Origin: a virus
IMG/VR virus record: IMGVR_UViG_3300045988_015741
Coordinates: 1 to 6,397 of that record
Length of the DNA: 6,397 nt
Reading direction: 5' to 3' (one strand)
Shown here: piece by piece, positions 1-6,397 of the stretch
Layout of the letters: every line of letters starts with the position of its first letter
How positions within the stretch are numbered: the first letter of the stretch is position 1
The notes under the pieces: generated by a model
Told to the model about the DNA's origin: nothing
What the model saw: the letters and a program-made list of their open reading frames with translations, nothing else
The model's database searches: none
Translations under genes and position numbers: made by a program

Positions 1-127
1 GAGAAACGCCGGAAAAATAATCCACGTTATAAGAGGAAGGATTAGCATTTTCCCATTGATTCCATCGAAAGAAATCCTGATAAATCTTTTGATAAGCAAG
101 AAGAGGGAAAATATTTACATAATTATT
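1..127. repeat. Terminal direct repeat, left copy. It is identical to 6271-6397 and is the assembly overlap of a circular 6270-nt genome.
   Basis: Block-by-block comparison of 1-127 (gagaaacgccggaaaaataatccacg...atatttacataattatt) with 6271-6397 shows identity over all 127 nt. The repeat lies inside one continuous reading frame, that of the capsid gene. Confidence 0.97.
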
Positions 128-718
128 TTGGATATATTGCTGAGTATAATTAGAAGAAGCTTCACTTACCAAAGAAGTAGACCACCAACGAGTACCAGAA
201 GAAGGAGCAGTACTCAGGATGTTACCATATCCAAGATATGAAAGAAGCTTAAAACTTAAATCAGCACGGCTAAAACCAAACATATTCTTATAAGAGGAAG
301 AATTAGAAGGATTATAACTCGACGCATTAAGACGATTCAAACAAGTAGAAAAATATTGTAAAGTTAAAGAGGGAAGATAAGAACCCAAAGACAAATTCTG
401 AGTTAAAGACAAAGCTTGAATCTGATTGATATCCTGCATCTGGGTAAGCACAGAAGGCGCAGACTTCCAAAGAAGACGCAACGGAACAGCATAGAAATCA
501 AAATATTCACGCAACCTGGTATAAGCAGAAGTCTCAACGGGCTGAGTACGAGTAAAATACTCAATGTTAAACTTATACTTATCACCGGGCATAGAAATAT
601 CCCAATAAACAGGGAGAAGCTCACCAACCTTTGCAGTAAATGCATTTTTACGTCCAATATCAAATCCAGAACGGTGAGGATGGTTCTGAAGATTGGACAT
701 TCCAGTGTAAGAAGCCAT
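1..718 (-). CDS. VP1: Major capsid protein VP1 (F-like jelly-roll), N-terminal part. The gene wraps around the circle and continues at 6270-5141.
   Basis: The minus-strand ATG is at 718-716. My hand translation of 718 down to 1 has no stop: MASYTGMSNLQNHPHRSGFDIGRKNAFTAKVGELLPVYWDISMPGDKYKFNIEYFTRTQPVETSAYTRLREYFDFYAVPLRLLWKSAPS...NVDYFSGVS. It is in frame with track ORF 5141..6295 through the repeat (718-25=693, divisible by 3). The N-terminal pattern (G.L.P, PGD, R..P, F..VP.R..W) is typical of Microviridae capsid proteins. The ORF track missed this part because it runs off the window edge. Confidence 0.93.
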   Translation of the reverse strand, partial: MASYTGMSNLQNHPHRSGFDIGRKNAFTAKVGELLPVYWDISMPGDKYKFNIEYFTRTQPVETSAYTRLREYFDFYAVPLRLLWKSAPSVLTQMQDINQIQALSLTQNLSLGSYLPSLTLQYFSTCLNRLNASSYNPSNSSSYKNMFGFSRADLSFKLLSYLGYGNILSTAPSSGTRWWSTSLVSEASSNYTQQYIQNNYVNIFPLLAYQKIYQDFFRWNQWENANPSSYNVDYFSGVS

Positions 719-746
719 AGAAAAAATAAATTAATAATTAAACATA

Positions 747-2447
747 CTATTCATATTCATATGAGAAAATACCTGACAAATCATTAACCTTCTTGTGTTT
801 AACCTTATCCCGACATTTCATCAACGCCGCGGCGACCAAACGACGAACAAAAGGTAATTTATCATAAGGAGTTTCCTCATCAAGAACAGACTTATCATAA
901 CGAAAAGAATAATTACGAATTTCAAAATCAACCAATTCCTTATCATTAGAATCTTCCAAGGTCTGATAAAAATCAACAAGGCGGTTGTATTCGTAACGAT
1001 TCCAAAAATTAACTATTTTGTCGGAAACAATACGCAAGAATCTGTCTCGGCCAAAATAGACTCCTCCAAAAGAGCCTTTGGATAAGAAGAAGTTCGTATC
1101 TCCGCTTGAGGAATATGTTTGAACAAATTTCTTAATTCCAAGAAAAAAACGGTAGACGCGGGAGATACGATGAACAGGCTCCAAATCAACACCATCATAC
1201 AAACGACATTCAGACAAGATGAGAATATCACTATGCGGTAGATTCGATTTAGGTAAAAGAATGTTACTTACGTCATTTCTTTTTCCATAATTATCTACAT
1301 AATTTAAATACTGTTTACAAAAAGACAACATGCTTTGCTTGGAAGCTTCGCTAAAAGGATCACATCTTATATCAGCGCATCCGCTACGAACGACTCGTTC
1401 GGGCGCTGTGAACGCAGCATAAAGTAACTGGTAAATACTCGATGAAGATTTACGAATAGCATCCGAAAATCGGGGGAATAGTCGAAGGAGATACGGCCAT
1501 GTAGGTTTAATTGTGCGAAAAAATCCATTGCGCTCAACGCACACTCCATCAAGACACTTATCGGCAACTTCGTCAATTTCGGTAATTCGTACCTTTCGAG
1601 GAAAGAGATTTGATTCTGTAAATCCAATGGAATGGAAGGATTTAGGTCGCACCACTTTTGGCATTTGAGTATAAAAGTTGGGTAAAGCGACAAAACTATT
1701 AACATAAGACGCAACATATGGAGCTGCGAATCCTCTCGAGAGTGACGCATCACAACGTCCGTAAGACCAAGCCTTAGATACATTTTCAAGAACAGTTTCC
1801 GAGAATCGTTCGGAATTGGAAAACAATAACAAATGCCAATGCGGGCGGAAACTGGTAGGGCCGTATTCTGATACAGCGTAGTAACGTAATTTTTCATCCG
1901 GGTAATAACTTCTTAAACGTTTCAAAAATAAATCAAGGTCACGATTACAAATATAAGGAATTCTATTCGGAATGTTATGTTTAATCTTACCAAAAATAGA
2001 TAACAAATCCTTGGGCTTCATAGGATAAGTAAATCTAACCTCAGGGTCTTTAAAGGTACGTTCTACAGTAGAATTTTTCAATTTAATAGAAGAGGAACGA
2101 GGAATGCTACGAAAACCAAACAAATAAGTATTAGGGTCACGAGCGTCCAAGTCATTAATATCGGGAACGACGGATACATCCGCAATATCATCAATGCAAG
2201 TTTCAACAACCGAAACCTCCAAAGTAGGAAGAAAGCGAGGAGCATAAGTAAGAGTAACAAAGTATATATATCGGAATTGAGCAGAATAAGTAGTGAGCAG
2301 GTTAGTCTGAATACCAGAACGGCGAAGAATACAAGAAGGGCAAGAGCCACAAGGAACAATAACAGGCTCGTGCGTGTATTTGTTGACAACCGTACGAGGA
2401 TTTTGACAACGAGTCACTAACTTATTCTGTAATTCCTTAGTAATCAT
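747..2447 (-). CDS. VP4: VP4 replication initiation protein (HUH rolling-circle endonuclease, phiX174 gpA-like)
   Basis: 566-aa ORF. It has a Cys cluster C14 ... PC33GSC36PSC39. RCR motif 1 is FVTLTY (aa 63-68). The HUH motif is RPHWHLLLF (H203/H205, nt 1841-1833, verified on the DNA). The two-tyrosine motif 3 is PYVASYVNS (Y244/Y248, nt 1718-1704), which closely resembles the YVAKYVNK active site of phiX174 gpA. The segment YYAVSEYG precedes the HUH motif, as in other microvirus VP4 proteins. Confidence 0.95.
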   Translation of the reverse strand: MITKELQNKLVTRCQNPRTVVNKYTHEPVIVPCGSCPSCILRRSGIQTNLLTTYSAQFRYIYFVTLTYAPRFLPTLEVSVVETCIDDIADVSVVPDINDLDARDPNTYLFGFRSIPRSSSIKLKNSTVERTFKDPEVRFTYPMKPKDLLSIFGKIKHNIPNRIPYICNRDLDLFLKRLRSYYPDEKLRYYAVSEYGPTSFRPHWHLLLFSNSERFSETVLENVSKAWSYGRCDASLSRGFAAPYVASYVNSFVALPNFYTQMPKVVRPKSFHSIGFTESNLFPRKVRITEIDEVADKCLDGVCVERNGFFRTIKPTWPYLLRLFPRFSDAIRKSSSSIYQLLYAAFTAPERVVRSGCADIRCDPFSEASKQSMLSFCKQYLNYVDNYGKRNDVSNILLPKSNLPHSDILILSECRLYDGVDLEPVHRISRVYRFFLGIKKFVQTYSSSGDTNFFLSKGSFGGVYFGRDRFLRIVSDKIVNFWNRYEYNRLVDFYQTLEDSNDKELVDFEIRNYSFRYDKSVLDEETPYDKLPFVRRLVAAALMKCRDKVKHKKVNDLSGIFSYEYE

Positions 2448-2752
2448 TTTCTATCAATAAAATTAAGCTCCATTTGACGGGGATTGCGGCCACGCGCAAA
2501 AGAAATGTGAATAAACGTACGATATTTTATAAGCTGGTCAAAAGTAAAAGGAGAATTTTTAATCAGAGAAATAAAATCCTCAACAGATAAATCGACAGGC
2601 TTTAAATCGATAGCGTCTCCAGTTAAATGCTGAGAACTAGGAGAACCGTTACAAGCAAGGTTTTGTTCCTTAGTACGAAAAGCAGAAGTAACAGTAAAAT
2701 GAATGTTACAACGGAGAAGCCATTCAACAAACTTCATTAGTTCAGGATTCAT
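2444..2752 (-). CDS. Peptidase M15 / LAS-family zinc peptidoglycan peptidase (putative endolysin)
   Basis: 102-aa ORF. The segment TSAFRTKEQNLACNGSPSSQHLTGDAIDL ... FIHIS matches the peptidase M15 (VanY / M15_3-like) signature SxxR..N...G....S.H..G.A.D plus a distal H. This gives a candidate zinc triad of H42-x6-D49 and H82. The stop codon overlaps the VP4 start as ATGA (2447-2444). Confidence 0.8.
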   Translation of the reverse strand: MNPELMKFVEWLLRCNIHFTVTSAFRTKEQNLACNGSPSSQHLTGDAIDLKPVDLSVEDFISLIKNSPFTFDQLIKYRTFIHISFARGRNPRQMELNFIDRK

Positions 2753-2761
2753 AATTTACGA

Positions 2762-2851
2762 TTACGAAAATATTTGAGCAATAGAAGTAAGAAGACTAAC
2801 AGCCGCAGCAATAATTGCAGACCAAATTTTAGATTTAGTTTCACTTTTCAT
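2762..2851 (-). CDS. 29-aa single-pass membrane peptide (holin-like candidate). It is the 3' part of the 66-aa ORF in the track.
   Basis: The internal ATG at 2851-2849 gives MKSETKSKIWSAIIAAAVSLLTSIAQIFS, a charged N-terminus followed by a ~20-residue hydrophobic helix. T-ending codons are 18 of 28 (64%), like the bona fide genes. The upstream part of the 66-aa ORF has only 11 of 36 (31%). The ORF ends 10 nt before the peptidase start. Confidence 0.5.
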   Translation of the reverse strand: MKSETKSKIWSAIIAAAVSLLTSIAQIFS

Positions 2852-3014
2852 CAGAAATTGCTTTAAAAGTTGAACAATGAGAAAGAATAAGCACACAATC
2901 AGGACACAGGTGAGAAGAAACAAATTCAGAAACTTCGTCAACGGGAACAAGAATGGTTTCATTTTGATTAGGATTTACCTTAGACTGAACAGAACACAAA
3001 TAATACTTTTCCAT
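2841..3014 (-). CDS. 57-aa Cys/His-rich acidic protein of unknown function. It is below the length cutoff of the ORF track.
   Basis: ATG at 3014-3012, the first ATG after an in-frame TAA at 3047-3045, and TGA at 2843-2841. Translation: MEKYYLCSVQSKVNPNQNETILVPVDEVSEFVSSHLCPDCVLILSHCSTFKAISDEK. T-ending codons are 35 of 56 (62%), matching the genome-wide coding bias. It is the first ORF downstream of the AT-rich promoter-like tract. C7, H35, C37, C40, H46 and C47 could be metal ligands. Confidence 0.55.
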   Translation of the reverse strand: MEKYYLCSVQSKVNPNQNETILVPVDEVSEFVSSHLCPDCVLILSHCSTFKAISDEK

Positions 3015-3056
3015 AACATTTAAAATTTTAATTATACATTGGTTTTAAAAACAGAA

Positions 3057-3124
3057 CAAAGATATAAATAAAAATTTGAAAAGAGCAAATACACAAATAT
3101 ATTATTAACATAAATAAACACAAG
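3057..3124 (-). promoter_or_regulatory. Two candidate Bacteroidetes-type promoters (-33 TTTG / -7 TAnnTTTG) for the minus-strand gene array
   Basis: Read on the minus strand, TTTG (3089-3086) is followed after 21 nt by TATCTTTG (3064-3057), and cTTG (3124-3121) is followed after 19 nt by TATATTTG (3101-3094). The tract 3021-3120 is 15% G+C by hand count and sits directly upstream of the first ORF (ATG at 3014). Such motifs arise easily in AT-rich DNA, so confidence is modest. Confidence 0.35.
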
Positions 3125-3128
3125 CTAT

Positions 3129-3420
3129 ATGAGTGGCAGGCTGGTCTGTGAGTTTGCATATATAAGACAAGAGGAGACTGAAAGCGATGAGGTAAATCGC
3201 TTTCCCTACGGGCAAACTCATGTAGGCTTCGCCAATTTATATTTTAAGAGGTATAGCAGCGACGGGGGAGAGGAACTCTCCGGGAGATTGCTTACGCGTT
3301 GCAAACGTCAAGTTTTAAGGATGGCAGTACTATAGCCTGACGGCTCTGATTCCAGTCGACGGAGTCTCCCAGAATTCAGGGGGGTGTATAACCACGCTAC
3401 GCGCGGTTGCCGGAAGTTAC
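3129..3420. other. GC-rich, highly structured non-coding island. Candidates are a complementary-strand origin, a structured RNA, or a foreign insert. Function unknown.
   Basis: There is no credible coding-strand ORF. G+C is about 51% (175 of 340, hand count over 3131-3470). Two coding samples gave 37% and 42%, and the adjacent tract gave 15%. Perfect stems are present. Stem A pairs 3149-3157 (tgagtttgc) with 3212-3220 (gcaaactca). It encloses hairpin B, which pairs 3180-3188 (gaaagcgat) with 3196-3204 (atcgctttc) around a 7-nt loop. Hairpin C pairs 3267-3272 (ggagag) with 3276-3281 (ctctcc) around a GAA loop. Long-range complementarities are 3137-3142/3334-3339 (caggct/agcctg), 3173-3179/3363-3369 (ggagact/agtctcc) and 3306-3310/3338-3342 (cgtca/tgacg). 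Confidence 0.6.
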
Positions 3421-3461
3421 TACAAACAACAAAGCCCGACGCGCATCACTGCGAGCCGGGC
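3421..3461 (-). terminator. Rho-independent terminator of the minus-strand transcription unit
   Basis: Minus-strand reading: GCCCGGC-U-CGCA-GUGA-UGCG-C-GUCGGGC (3461-3434). This gives 5 GC pairs, one G-U that pairs only in this orientation, one more GC pair, a mismatch, and 4 pairs closing a GUGA tetraloop. It is followed immediately by TTTGTTGTTTGT (3433-3422). It lies 57 nt downstream of the VP2 stop. The plus strand has no T-tract after the hairpin. Confidence 0.6.
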
Positions 3462-3518
3462 ACACATGACAAACAAAAAGACTAACGGCGAGAACCATAA
3501 TTGTAATTATAGTTAGCG

Positions 3519-4643
3519 TTAGTGCCCAGTGTTAGTATTGTGATTAACAGAACGAGGAAAAGACCTAGAAAAAATCCTACGAGGCATGAAATTTCCTATA
3601 GTATTACCGATACTAGTACCATATTCAACCCATTTATCAGCATCAAAATACTTATACTTTTTCTTTTCATTTCTAGCACGATACCATTCCTCAATATTCC
3701 TACTGCGAGCGTTGTCTTTAGGAAGCCCTAGTCTAAGTTCTTCATTATGATAAGCTGCAGCAGATTCATTAGCTGCAATATTGGCAGCAATTTGAGATTC
3801 AGCAATACGAGAAGCAACTTCATTAGAAATATTTTGACCACGAGTACGAGCAGCAGCCAAAGCTTCTTCAGCCAAAGCTTTTTTAGCTTCAGTATAAGAA
3901 AGATAACCAGCAGACATGCGCTGGTAGTAATCCGCAGCTTTAACATTTAAGTCAAGCTGTTGTTGTTGGTCAAGATACTTGTTCAAAATACCTTTAGCCT
4001 CATTATCGAGAAGCATACCAGCACGTTGAGCACGCATAATAAGACCGGTCATTGCCATGTTATCAACTTCCTGTTGTTCCTTAGCATAACCAAGTTGAGC
4101 ACGAGCTAGTCCAGTAGACCTCAAATAATTACGAGTTCCTTCAGTAAGTTTTCCCCAATCAATATTAGAAAGAATTTCCATAGCTTGGGCATCAGCAAGT
4201 TGTTTAGCACCTTGCAACTGAGATTTTTCAGATTGAATCAAATCATATTGGAAAATATTACCAATAGAAGAACCGATACCGGAGTAATCAACTTGAAAAG
4301 GTTGCATGGCAGCATTACCAGTAGAAGTAGCAGAAGCACCAGTACCAGCAGATTGAGCAGCACCAGCGGAACCTCCATTCATCATCAGATAAGGATTCAA
4401 ACCAGCTTCCTCGAGACGTTGGCGTTGGGCAGAAGCAGTGTTATAAGCGTTCTCCTTATTCCACATGTTTTCCTGCCAATCACGCTGCTGCATTGCCATA
4501 CGTTCGTTAAATTGGTTATTCATCTGATTAATTTTATAATTCATCTGGTTGGTTTCCCTGATATTTTGTCTATTCTGAGAGTTTTGAGCAGCAGAAGAAC
4601 CAAGACCAAGGAGACCACCAGCGATTGAACCAAGTAAGCCCAT
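3519..4643 (-). CDS. VP2: VP2 minor capsid / DNA pilot protein (H-like)
   Basis: 374-aa ORF. It has a Gly-rich hydrophobic N-terminus (MGLLGSIAGGLLGLGSS) and a Q/N-rich segment. It carries the conserved pilot-protein motif ENAYNTASAQRQRLEEAGLNPYLMM, which resembles the N-T-A-x-Q-R-x-x-x-x-x-AGLNP motif of gokushovirus VP2. A long Ala/Gln-rich helical central region follows. Its position after the capsid and scaffold-like genes is as expected. Confidence 0.9.
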   Translation of the reverse strand: MGLLGSIAGGLLGLGSSAAQNSQNRQNIRETNQMNYKINQMNNQFNERMAMQQRDWQENMWNKENAYNTASAQRQRLEEAGLNPYLMMNGGSAGAAQSAGTGASATSTGNAAMQPFQVDYSGIGSSIGNIFQYDLIQSEKSQLQGAKQLADAQAMEILSNIDWGKLTEGTRNYLRSTGLARAQLGYAKEQQEVDNMAMTGLIMRAQRAGMLLDNEAKGILNKYLDQQQQLDLNVKAADYYQRMSAGYLSYTEAKKALAEEALAAARTRGQNISNEVASRIAESQIAANIAANESAAAYHNEELRLGLPKDNARSRNIEEWYRARNEKKKYKYFDADKWVEYGTSIGNTIGNFMPRRIFSRSFPRSVNHNTNTGH

Positions 4644-5125
4644 TATTCAGAGGAAGCAGTATCAGCGGAAGCAGCAGCCGCCTTTTCTGCCTCTTGTTTA
4701 GCATTTTCAGCATCAATCAATTCTTGAGCTTGAAACTCGAGATGTTCAGCATAAACTGACAACTCTTTAGACCAAGCAATAATTTCAGAAGGAGCTTGAA
4801 CATGACGAGAACGAACCGTTGCCAAAAGGTCATCATCAGACATTTTATCCATAATCTGCTGAATCTGAGAAGCAGACCTATTACCTTGACCAAACTTAGA
4901 AGCAATAGAAAGACCAGCACGAGAAGCCAAGTCCTTGGTATGAAGAATCAAACGAACATCAGAAGTATAACGAACTGGACGAGTTTCATCAGTATCATAA
5001 ATCTCTACACGAAGCTCTTCAGTACAATCAAACTCAGGAGCAACAGCAAAAGCATCAGGCTCAACATTAGGAATAAGTCCACAACCTTGTTCCAGACATT
5101 CCAAAGAATTAAATTTTCCTATCAT
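4643..5125 (-). CDS. Acidic 160-aa protein, putative internal scaffolding protein (VP3-like by position, size and charge)
   Basis: The ORF has strong third-position T bias and lies between VP1 and VP2. It is rich in D/E and has a C-terminal Ala/Glu helical tail (ELIDAENAKQEAEKAAAASADTASSE). Its stop overlaps the VP2 start as TAATG (4645-4641). The functional call is an analogy with the ~150-aa VP3 of gokushoviruses. I cannot verify sequence homology by eye. Confidence 0.5.
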   Translation of the reverse strand: MIGKFNSLECLEQGCGLIPNVEPDAFAVAPEFDCTEELRVEIYDTDETRPVRYTSDVRLILHTKDLASRAGLSIASKFGQGNRSASQIQQIMDKMSDDDLLATVRSRHVQAPSEIIAWSKELSVYAEHLEFQAQELIDAENAKQEAEKAAAASADTASSE

Positions 5126-5140
5126 AATTAAAACAAAAAA

Positions 5141-6397
5141 TTAGTAAGGTACACCATCACGAGACAAATTACGGGCAACATAGCAACCAATATAAGAATT
5201 AATCAACAGTTGGTCGGTATCCCAAGTAGAATCCGCAGCAACTCCGAATATCGGGTCAAGAACAGAAGGATTGACCTTAAAAAACTTATAATTCAAAACA
5301 ACCTTGTTACCTTCATTGATATCTCCTTCATTGTATCCAAAACCAAACCATCCGGAAAGAAGAGACTCGGTAACAGGAGATACCCAAGATTTAAGAGTAG
5401 TAGTAAACGCACCGTTAATGACATCAAGTTTTGTCTTCCAATTGAAATAACGAGGATTATAACCTGCATTGAACAAATTGACAATAGAAGCTTTTGGGGA
5501 ATTGAAAATTTGTGTCATAGGAAGAACTTCCATACCAATATTATCAAACTCGGGAATTGGGAGAGACTCGGCATCAGTTACAAGCAACTGACCATCTTGG
5601 CCGGTAAGTGTATAATCGAGCAAAGGAACAGCGTGATAAATACACATAACGACACAATGTTCATCAGTAGTGTAAGTGAAAGAACCATTTCCAGCACCGA
5701 CACCCTTACCAGCAATAACAGCAGTATCACCTTCAGCAGCAAGGTTATTGTTCACAACTTCACTGATATCAAGATTACGAGAGATACCACCAATATAGGT
5801 ACACATATTAGAAAGGGCTTGGGGCAAGTTCACACCAAAGTGTTTGCGAATCTGTTCACGATAATCCGAATCACCGGATTGAGAGATTTCCTTCCAACGC
5901 TGAAGAGCTTCAGCCTGGCGAAGCGCAAGTACCGTAAATTGAGATTGCAAAGTTGATAAATCAACACAAAGGGAAGAACCCAAAGGTATTGTATTAGAGG
6001 CAGAGGCTTGCAAAGCAAAGAAAGGAACTGGAGCAGAACTAGAACTAACGGCAGAAGCAACACCTATCTTACTCTTTTTATTATCAGAACGTAAAACAAC
6101 ATCGGAAGCTCCTGAATTAGGAATATCAATAACAGCAACATCTCCAAATTGAGAATTCGGAAGAACACCCATTAACAGATCCTTGTTCCAGTTACAATAT
6201 TTGAGGTCAAACATTGTATCAGATTTCCAATATGGATCAGAAGCAAGAGGAAGAGAAGATGTTAAAAGAGGAGAAACGCCGGAAAAATAATCCACGTTAT
6301 AAGAGGAAGGATTAGCATTTTCCCATTGATTCCATCGAAAGAAATCCTGATAAATCTTTTGATAAGCAAGAAGAGGGAAAATATTTACATAATTATT
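5141..6397 (-). CDS. VP1: Major capsid protein VP1, C-terminal part. Positions 6271-6397 duplicate 1-127.
   Basis: Track ORF 5141..6295 (TAA at 5143-5141) stays open up to the window end in the same frame. Its listed start is a GVS-context GTG (N-V-D-Y-F in the continuous protein), not a real initiation site. The joined gene is 718 + 1130 = 1848 nt, giving 615 aa. Confidence 0.93.
   Translation of the reverse strand, partial: NNYVNIFPLLAYQKIYQDFFRWNQWENANPSSYNVDYFSGVSPLLTSSLPLASDPYWKSDTMFDLKYCNWNKDLLMGVLPNSQFGDVAVIDIPNSGASDVVLRSDNKKSKIGVASAVSSSSAPVPFFALQASASNTIPLGSSLCVDLSTLQSQFTVLALRQAEALQRWKEISQSGDSDYREQIRKHFGVNLPQALSNMCTYIGGISRNLDISEVVNNNLAAEGDTAVIAGKGVGAGNGSFTYTTDEHCVVMCIYHAVPLLDYTLTGQDGQLLVTDAESLPIPEFDNIGMEVLPMTQIFNSPKASIVNLFNAGYNPRYFNWKTKLDVINGAFTTTLKSWVSPVTESLLSGWFGFGYNEGDINEGNKVVLNYKFFKVNPSVLDPIFGVAADSTWDTDQLLINSYIGCYVARNLSRDGVPY
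6271..6397. repeat. Terminal direct repeat, right copy (identical to 1-127)
   Basis: Exact 127-nt identity with the start of the window. See the left copy. Confidence 0.97.

Follow-up and report, generated by a model that had tools for sequence, protein, structure and literature searches.

A modular folded island in the intergenic gap of gut microviruses is a candidate complementary-strand origin

Why does a microvirus genome of this size leave a stretch of some 500 nt to no gene at all? The question is raised by the IMG/VR virus record IMGVR_UViG_3300045988_015741, positions 1 to 6,397 of which (the whole stretch analysed, called the window below) represent a circular genome of 6270 nt with an assembly overlap of 127 nt (bases 1-127 = 6271-6397). 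Every gene of this genome lies on the minus strand, and 3015-3518 (504 nt) is the sole long gap that no gene covers. The gap contains an island, 3129-3420, with a G+C content of 0.50, as against 0.167 in the adjoining tract 3015-3128 and 0.385 genome-wide. It is argued below, with moderate confidence and by analogy with known systems, that the island is a folded single-stranded DNA (ssDNA) signal on the packaged strand, and that it most likely serves as a complementary-strand origin, i.e. a single-strand initiation signal.

The island is a structured non-coding element of about 300 nt, composed of three modules (D1, D2 and D3) with a linker after the first, and it occurs at 83-93% identity in more than 100 contigs; of its two strands, the T-rich and gene-sense minus strand is presumed to be the functional one. 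BLAST searches of phage records found it 83-89% identical in Dulem viruses 236 and 257 and in bajarodmic viruses 1134 and 410. The genome-wide identity of these same close relatives is about 80-82%, so that the island is conserved at least equally. Partial copies were detected, also by BLAST, in Microvirus mar62, mar40, mar45 and mar49 and in Dulem virus 262. IMG/VR and public metagenomes were scanned with patterns and then with nhmmer, which yielded 152 matches spread over more than 100 contigs some 6.2 kb long; the contigs with a stated source came from human-gut metagenomes or animal faeces. Comparative counts given below use 91 distinct elements, and 96 sequences for some of the pair counts. 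Two contigs bear the element twice: in L223 the copies stand head to head (898-1193 and 1539-1834), which is probably an assembly palindrome, and in the 9-kb contig L151 two differing copies lie in tandem (4058-4348 and 6890-7183), as in a chimera or a heterodimer.

A sequence-only reading of the window had described a GC-rich island free of open reading frames (ORFs) beside an AT-rich tract, and this description was borne out in both respects, with 50% against 17% G+C and no conserved ORF. It had also recognized that an intact gene at this place in close relatives would turn the island into a decayed pseudogene. The only ORFs of the gap are 3129-3335 (plus strand, 68 amino acids) and 3028-3159 (minus strand, 43 amino acids). 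The former overlaps the island, where Dulem virus 257 too has an annotated ORF, as might be expected if the island were functionless, either a decayed gene or host-derived filler. However, the 68-amino-acid ORF is intact in 9 of the 91 relatives, the length of the region is not kept in multiples of three (38, 21 and 32 relatives have remainders of 0, 1 and 2), and substitutions show no three-base periodicity, the variability per codon position being 0.087, 0.114 and 0.085. The plus-strand ORF is not a gene. Conservation at or above the genome-wide level in close relatives and the compensatory changes described below also speak against filler. A host source was sought by an exact-pattern scan for D3 in 185,579 bacterial and archaeal genomes, which returned 45 hits, roughly the chance level for this pattern (about 100 by a hand estimate); nhmmer on all 45 and a covariance model on 8 confirmed none of them as a true copy. 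A host-derived origin was accordingly rejected at that sensitivity, and functionless filler of either kind is extremely improbable.

What is conserved is a fold. Its helices were built by hand and checked by pair counts, and they replaced the output of RNAalifold on a MAFFT alignment, which consisted of partial and strand-inconsistent structures. D1 (3143-3233, minus strand) is a three-way junction with one additional mini-hairpin, and 98.6% of its cells are paired. It is closed by H1 (3149-3157/3212-3220), a perfect and invariant helix of 9 bp that encloses H2 (3180-3188/3196-3204, again 9 bp and perfect) and H3, a mini-hairpin of 2 bp (3204-3212, minus strand CCCGTAGGG). In H2 the pair 3186-3198 changes from G-C (53 sequences) to U-A (37). 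The mini-hairpin that follows the junction, H4 (3225-3233, minus strand GGCGAAGCC), occurs with three pair types. The AT-rich, variable linker (3234-3248) has received inserted modules of 77-149 nt in relatives (L005, L024, L026, L028, L050, L073, L080, L215, L222 and L237). D2 (3249-3381, minus strand) comprises the variable hairpin H6 (GGAGAG-GAA-CUCUCC, 3267-3281), the invariant unpaired blocks TACGCGTTGCAAACGTCAAG and GGATGGCAGTACTATA, and three further helices: H7 (3334-3337/3342-3345), H8 (3346-3353/3371-3379, with one bulge) and, within the latter, the variable hairpin H9 (3358-3366). D3 (3383-3425, minus strand) is the most conserved module and is formed by H10 (3390-3397/3401-3408) between the invariant flanks GGTGTATAACC and GCCGGAAGTTAC; its minus strand reads GTAACTTCCGGC-AACCGCGC-GTA-GCGTGGTT-ATACACC and includes GCGTAGC. 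D1 is missing from elements of the mar40, L041 and Dulem 262 types, and D2 can be replaced by a 'variant C', as in L028, L041 and others. D3 is universal, being present in all three genome backbones in which the element occurs and 98% identical in Dulem virus 262.

Covariation supports this fold in H2, H4, H7, H8 and H10. In H7, H8 and H10 together, 93.1% of cells are paired, as against 19-45% in slid controls, and changes on both sides occur in 10 of the 20 pairs (73 cells), a value reached by none of 500 shuffles. All four pairs of H7 vary on both sides with 100% of cells paired, and so do four of the eight pairs of H8, where, for example, 62 sequences have U-A and 31 have C-G at 3352-3372. 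D1 adds both-side changes in 5 of 23 pairs (81 cells), again with 0/500 shuffles reaching this, which brings the total to 15 of the 43 pairs tested. The helices that had been proposed from the sequence (3149-3157/3212-3220, 3180-3204 and 3267-3281) are all present in the window; H1, the first of them, never varies, so that pair counts neither support nor refute it. A proposed pseudoknot between 3173-3179 and 3363-3369 fared worse: it pairs exactly in the window, but only 27 of the 91 relatives retain all of it and no compensating changes occur, so that it is not supported. Two further candidate helices (3255-3259/3288-3292 and 3256-3261/3297-3302), which can pair on the plus strand only, were left unassigned, as they lack covariation and fail in mar40-type or variant-C elements. 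The comparison of folding energies with dinucleotide shuffles that had been suggested gave z-scores of -1.6 and -2.8 for RNA of the plus and minus strands and of -2.1 and -2.7 for the corresponding DNA strands; these values are only moderate, and the comparison of relatives, with its conservation and covariation, is the stronger evidence. Two repeats were also observed around the GGATGGCAGTACTATAGCC block. A direct repeat, CAAG...TGGCAG, links the 5' flank of the island to this conserved block (3121-3139/3309-3327), and an imperfect inverted repeat of 18 nt, 72% complementary (3121-3138/3322-3339), leads to the same block and could form a long-range closing helix.

Which strand folds, and in which nucleic acid, is suggested by the loops. 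On the T-rich strand, which in the window is the minus and gene strand, nearly all short hairpins are capped as C-GNA-G or C-GNNA-G, and just the middle base or bases vary. The H10 loop is C-GNA-G in 88 of the 91 elements (GCGTAGC in 61, GCGAAGC in 21, GCGCAGC in 6), H3 reads CCGNAGG in about 80, H4 has a GAA loop in about 87 (GGCGAAGCC or a variant), and H7 is C-GNA-G or C-GNNA-G in about 85 (GCC-GTTA/GTCA/GTA/GAA-GGC). Even the linker modules, which are non-homologous, hold one C-GNA-G hairpin apiece on this strand (10, against 0 on the other). As DNA, mini-hairpins of the type GCGNAGC/GCGNNAGC melt at 70-76 C, the RNA forms being far weaker, and they bind single-stranded DNA-binding protein (SSB) poorly; priming sites that contain them include those of the minus origins of G4 and St-1/alpha3 and that of RSF1010 ssiA (CCGAAGG), and such motifs also occur in the N4 virion-polymerase promoters (PMC13037366). 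Non-canonical pairs differ between the strands as well. In 96/96 sequences the H10 pair 3394-3404 is mismatched, as A.C when read on the plus strand and as G.T when read on the minus strand, and in 8 sequences the plus strand has C.A at 3353-3371. Folded single-stranded DNA is favoured over RNA.

The sequence-only reading had offered an independently expressed structured RNA as another possibility, e.g. a regulator or ribozyme transcribed from the plus strand, which would be antisense to the genes in the window and sense in the mar40/L041 clade. The combination of strong covariation with long unpaired blocks that never vary does resemble an RNA with a tertiary fold, and an element that works in either gene orientation fits a self-contained gene. 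Read on the plus strand, H3 is C(UNCG)G, and G.U pairs can be formed on that strand in 3256-3261/3297-3302 and in extensions of H1 and H10. The other loops are less accommodating, for on the plus strand they read C-UNC-G, so that H4, H10 and most H7 are possible there as triloops only and not as UNCG tetraloops; C-UNC-G triloops are not a stable RNA motif, and the GNNA loops of a minus-strand RNA (GUUA, GUCA, GCCA) are not GNRA. The A.C mismatch of H10 is invariant on the plus strand. The wobble extension of H1, earlier taken as a sign of RNA, involves invariant positions and gains no comparative support either way. Signals for expression are similarly ambiguous. A sigma70-like match, TTGAAA-16-TATATT, lies upstream at 3076-3103 (plus strand) and points into the island, but such matches are at chance level (4, with 2.0+-1.4 expected), and this one is not conserved in relatives of the Dulem 257 type. 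The host uses Bacteroidetes-type promoters, none of which was found on the plus strand, nor was a plus-strand terminator. The earlier failure to recognize a tRNA or tmRNA by eye agrees with the searches: ARAGORN found neither in the window; Rfam 15 gave no match there at gathering score, the sole hit at E<=10 being ncS16 with 13.5 bits against a gathering score of 48, and it gave nothing at E<=0.1 in eight divergent relatives. An RNA also supplies no reason for the orientation of the element to track strand composition (see below). The covariation notwithstanding, a plus-strand RNA is thus weakened and is considered unlikely.

The orientation of the element is the second line of evidence. In 111 contigs, which have coding strands rich in T at third codon positions (T3 0.38-0.58, A3 10-21%), its plus strand runs antisense to the genes; in eight (mar40, mar45, mar49, L041, L193, L221, L245 and L255), which have coding strands rich in A (A3 0.32-0.51, T3 0.12-0.22), it is sense. 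The mini-hairpin strand is therefore the T-rich strand in 119/119 informative contigs, regardless of gene direction. L223, an inverted-duplication contig, was uninformative and was left out of this count, and L265 and L267, which were added later, follow the same rule. In the flipped clade the genes are real, with Phage_F and Rep domains and GenBank annotations on the A-rich strand. A purine bias of the host was entertained as a cause of the A-rich composition and appears unlikely: the promoters of the clade are of the Bacteroidetes type, and it has modules near-identical to those of the T-rich clade. In ssDNA phages, such T-richness is the mark left by cytosine deamination on a strand that is unpaired for part of the time. 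We infer that these phages package their T-rich strand.

Should the cassette be bound to whichever strand is packaged, its gene-sense position in one clade (mar40, mar45, mar49 and the L041 type) would mean that this clade packages the strand antisense to its genes. That the cassette marks the packaged strand, and that this clade is therefore negative-sense, is put forward tentatively, at somewhat less than an even chance. A literature search for negative-sense or skew-inverted microviruses brought up nothing relevant. Composition of this kind extends well beyond the contigs with the element, as A-rich and T-poor coding strands were found in all 79 sampled VP1 relatives of L041 and in the cultured Bdellovibrio phage phiMH2K (third positions: A3 0.41, C3 0.32, T3 0.18, G3 0.09); the coding strands of Chp2 and SpV4 are T-rich, like those of the window-type phages. 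Across the A-rich clade (L265-L343, L344, which is phiMH2K, L003, L004, L009 and L041) A3 is 0.40-0.58, the mirror image of the window type.

A third line of evidence is that the element behaves as a cassette. It occurs on three backbones (window-type, L041-type and Dulem 262-type). VP1 and Rep of the window type and the L041 type have no similarity detectable by tblastn, and D3 is near-identical across backbones whose Rep proteins have nothing detectable in common beyond the Pfam REP_ORF2-G2P domain. Variant-C D2-D3 is common to L041-type and window-type genomes, a window-like D2-D3 occurs in L221 and L255, and both main clades have Bacteroidetes-type promoters. Near-identical D3 modules in genomes with dissimilar Reps fit the target of a host factor better than a Rep-specific nick site. 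This bears on an alternative that is in fact compatible with a complementary-strand origin, namely that D3 or the whole element is the viral-strand rolling-circle origin, where Rep nicks and terminates, or else a packaging signal, with its orientation setting which strand is displaced. An origin that defines the displaced strand would produce just the coupling of orientation and composition described above, as origin inversions are reported to do in mitochondrial genomes (PMC13602327; 10.1101/2020.05.09.085712), D3 is universal and the most conserved module with invariant flanks, and several replication signals do share the non-coding region of about 500 nt in f1/M13 (textbook knowledge). On the other hand, Rep-origin pairs normally co-vary, a phiX174-type origin needs no array of hairpins (also textbook knowledge), and some 300 nt of structure rich in mini-hairpins exceeds what a nick site needs. 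It is unlikely that a Rep origin or packaging signal accounts for the element.

A complementary-strand origin, the first possibility named in the sequence-only reading, is favoured by the mini-hairpins on the T-rich strand, the composition-tied orientation and the sharing of the cassette. In the proposed mechanism, the circular single strand would enter its Bacteroidota host and SSB would coat most of it. The GC-rich island would escape coating as a fixed set of hairpins capped by C-GNA-G and C-GNNA-G mini-hairpins (H3, H4, H7 and H10), leaving the invariant unpaired blocks and the invariant H1 duplex exposed. This folded patch might then be read by a host priming enzyme, candidates being primase, RNA polymerase or a PriA-type primosome, and the primer laid for the complementary strand would allow the virion DNA to become the double-stranded replicative form; the island would thus function as the minus-strand origin. 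Dependence on host factors and not on the phage Rep would explain why unrelated microviruses with a common host exchange the cassette, and also why it keeps one fixed orientation relative to the packaged strand.

Several families of initiation signals invite comparison. The single-strand origins and initiation signals of plasmids and integrative elements (ssoA, ssoU, ssoT, ssoW, the ICEBs1 sso, and ssiA and ssiB of RSF1010) are structured, non-coding, dependent on orientation and host factors, and exchanged as cassettes by unrelated replicons that share a host. The island resembles them in being non-coding, with its mini-hairpins on what is presumably the packaged strand, in its extensive conserved intrastrand structure, in its DNA mini-hairpins (GCGNAGC/GCGNNAGC and CCGAAGG, in about 80-88 of the 91 elements), and in being interchangeable across unrelated replicons; H3 of most members equals the CCGAAGG of ssiA. 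It differs in belonging to a phage replicon and in its relation to the ssoA type, for the CS-6 motif TAGCGT is present in only 61 of the 91 elements, when the H10 loop is GTA, and no RSB was recognized, so that the element is not classed with ssoA. In f1/M13 the intergenic region, non-coding and of about 500 nt, extends from a terminator to the next unit and has hairpins that are active in ssDNA, assigned to packaging, to the minus origin (primed by RNA polymerase) and to the plus origin. The 504-nt gap of the window is similar, and unlike the f1 region it is shared with a dif-like phage attachment site (attP) and a promoter.

Closest in setting are the primase origins of G4, St-1, alpha3 and phiK. 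Each of them lies between microvirus genes, on the strand that is packaged, and forms several stable hairpins; the island, with its own set of hairpins on what is presumably the packaged strand, is like them in this. The core mini-hairpins are GCGAAAGC in G4 and GCGTTAGC in St-1/alpha3, to be compared with GCGTAGC/GCGAAGC, GGCGAAGCC, CCGNAGG and C-GTTA-G here, and resistance to SSB coating would be expected of the island as of the G4-type origins (PMC13037366). These origins measure about 140 nt and have three hairpins, whereas the island is modular and about 300 nt long, belongs to phages of Bacteroidota and combines a 9-bp duplex with long unpaired blocks, all of them invariant; sequence homology is not expected.

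Some of the observations weigh against this interpretation. That the element folds as DNA and not as RNA, and that it serves in priming, are both indirect conclusions, priming having been assigned by analogy. The z-scores are modest and separate neither DNA from RNA nor one strand from the other, and H1 and the long conserved unpaired blocks have no explanation in the favoured model. The plus-strand G.U pairs of the candidate helix 3256-3261/3297-3302 and of the H1 and H10 extensions would be A.C on the minus strand, and among them an A/G polymorphism stands opposite U in 30 of the 91 sequences; covariation does not support them, but they would favour a plus-strand fold if real. In a census of 89 microvirus genomes, the T-rich strand had 47 C-GNA-G hairpins and the A-rich strand 141, which makes the loop signature a trait of one element family with a single evolutionary origin. 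As a general indicator of which strand is packaged, such hairpins were therefore rejected, and the census itself is confounded by base composition. That the A-rich-coding clade packages its T-rich strand is an assumption. Finally, the 119 contigs reflect only about two to three independent transfers between backbones, and later module swaps could preserve orientation through mere homologous recombination.

The island might also be concerned with lysogeny, as the sequence-only reading had considered when it named an attachment region, or horizontally acquired or host-derived DNA, as a third possibility. Horizontal exchange among phages is evident, and a dif-like attP does lie next to the island; the crossover falls outside it and no host-genome copy is known from the scan above. 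Integrated relatives (L347-L350) adjoin a BatD/TPR/Usp gene cluster in metagenome contigs and are bounded by the direct repeat TATATTAAACAT (L347 2005-2016 and 8429-8440). The island lies wholly within the right prophage end (L347 8013-8372 = window 3480->3117), window 3016->2700 aligns within the left end, and the island itself lacks the repeat. These junctions thus place the dif-like attP in the AT-rich tract next to the island, at about 3092-3121 on the minus strand, where the gene strand reads GTGTTTATTTATGTTAATAATATATTTGTG; its position was set by alignment to the prophage junction. This placement is consistent with the Xer/dif model of Bacteroidetes microvirus proviruses (PMC3091885; PMC7062461).

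An accessory role in Xer recombination, as a folded single-stranded attP of the CTXphi kind or as accessory sequences like cer and psi, would suit the dif-like core about 10-60 nt from D1 and the prophages in Bacteroidales-like chromosomes, and the proviruses of Bacteroidetes microviruses have been proposed to use XerC/D, possibly with a CTX-like second site (PMC3091885). As in the folded attP of CTXphi and in the Bacteroidetes provirus att sites, a dif-like site shares the non-coding region and there is no phage integrase (PMC3091885; PMC7062461). Here, however, the crossover core lies outside the island, which holds no inverted dif-like partner for a forked hairpin. The island is inverted relative to the genes in the A-rich clade, yet a dif-like ATGTTAA(A)T motif in mar45 (by eye, one genome) keeps the gene-strand orientation of the attP-like core of the window. 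Accessory sequences such as cer and psi act as duplex DNA, for which no covariation of helices is expected. A part in Xer recombination is accordingly regarded as quite improbable.

The remaining features of the gap concern transcription. The flanks described in the sequence-only reading, a terminator on one side and a promoter on the other, were both confirmed, and the island lies between them, outside the mRNAs. The intrinsic terminator of the capsid/scaffold/pilot unit (3423-3461, minus strand) consists of a hairpin at 3434-3461 (-21.1 kcal/mol, z = -3.1), which is followed by UUUGUUGUUUG, with a U-rich tail at 3433-3423; it was found by folding and had not been picked up by a simple consensus scan. 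The promoter of the small-ORF/peptidase/Rep/capsid unit (3089->3057, minus strand) is of the Bacteroidetes type, with a -33 TTTG, 21 nt and a -7 element TATCTTTG, and is the sole full match to TTTG-N19-21-TAnnTTTG across the window genome. An equivalent is kept in relatives, and in the A-rich clade it stands about 37 nt past the element on the gene strand. The genes, all on the minus strand, encode a major capsid protein with a Phage_F domain match (5141-6295, continuing round the circle), a scaffold-like protein of 160 amino acids, a pilot-like protein of 374 amino acids (3519-4643), two small ORFs, an M15 peptidase of 102 amino acids (Peptidase_M15_3, 2444-2752) and a Rep of 566 amino acids (747-2447). 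The peptidase gene overlaps the start of rep by 4 nt and is outside the classic microvirus gene set; its product is probably a cell-wall hydrolase for lysis.

To our knowledge, the conversion of microvirus ssDNA to duplex has been worked out solely in the phiX174/G4 group of E. coli. The literature search, which was limited and not aimed at the origins of these groups, found no described origin for Bacteroidota gut microviruses. These are among the commonest phages of the human gut. A portable candidate origin of about 300 nt would offer a handle for infectious clones and for single-stranded Bacteroides vectors, and for the question of which host enzyme is involved. A flipped microvirus clade, if real, would parallel mitochondrial genomes, in which origin inversions are reported to flip strand skew (PMC13602327; 10.1101/2020.05.09.085712). 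The inversion of the origin relative to the genes may then hold for much of the Microviridae, which as a family are defined as positive-sense, and the link between orientation and composition makes the long-assumed polarity of the packaged DNA, in uncultured microviruses as in phiMH2K, a testable question.

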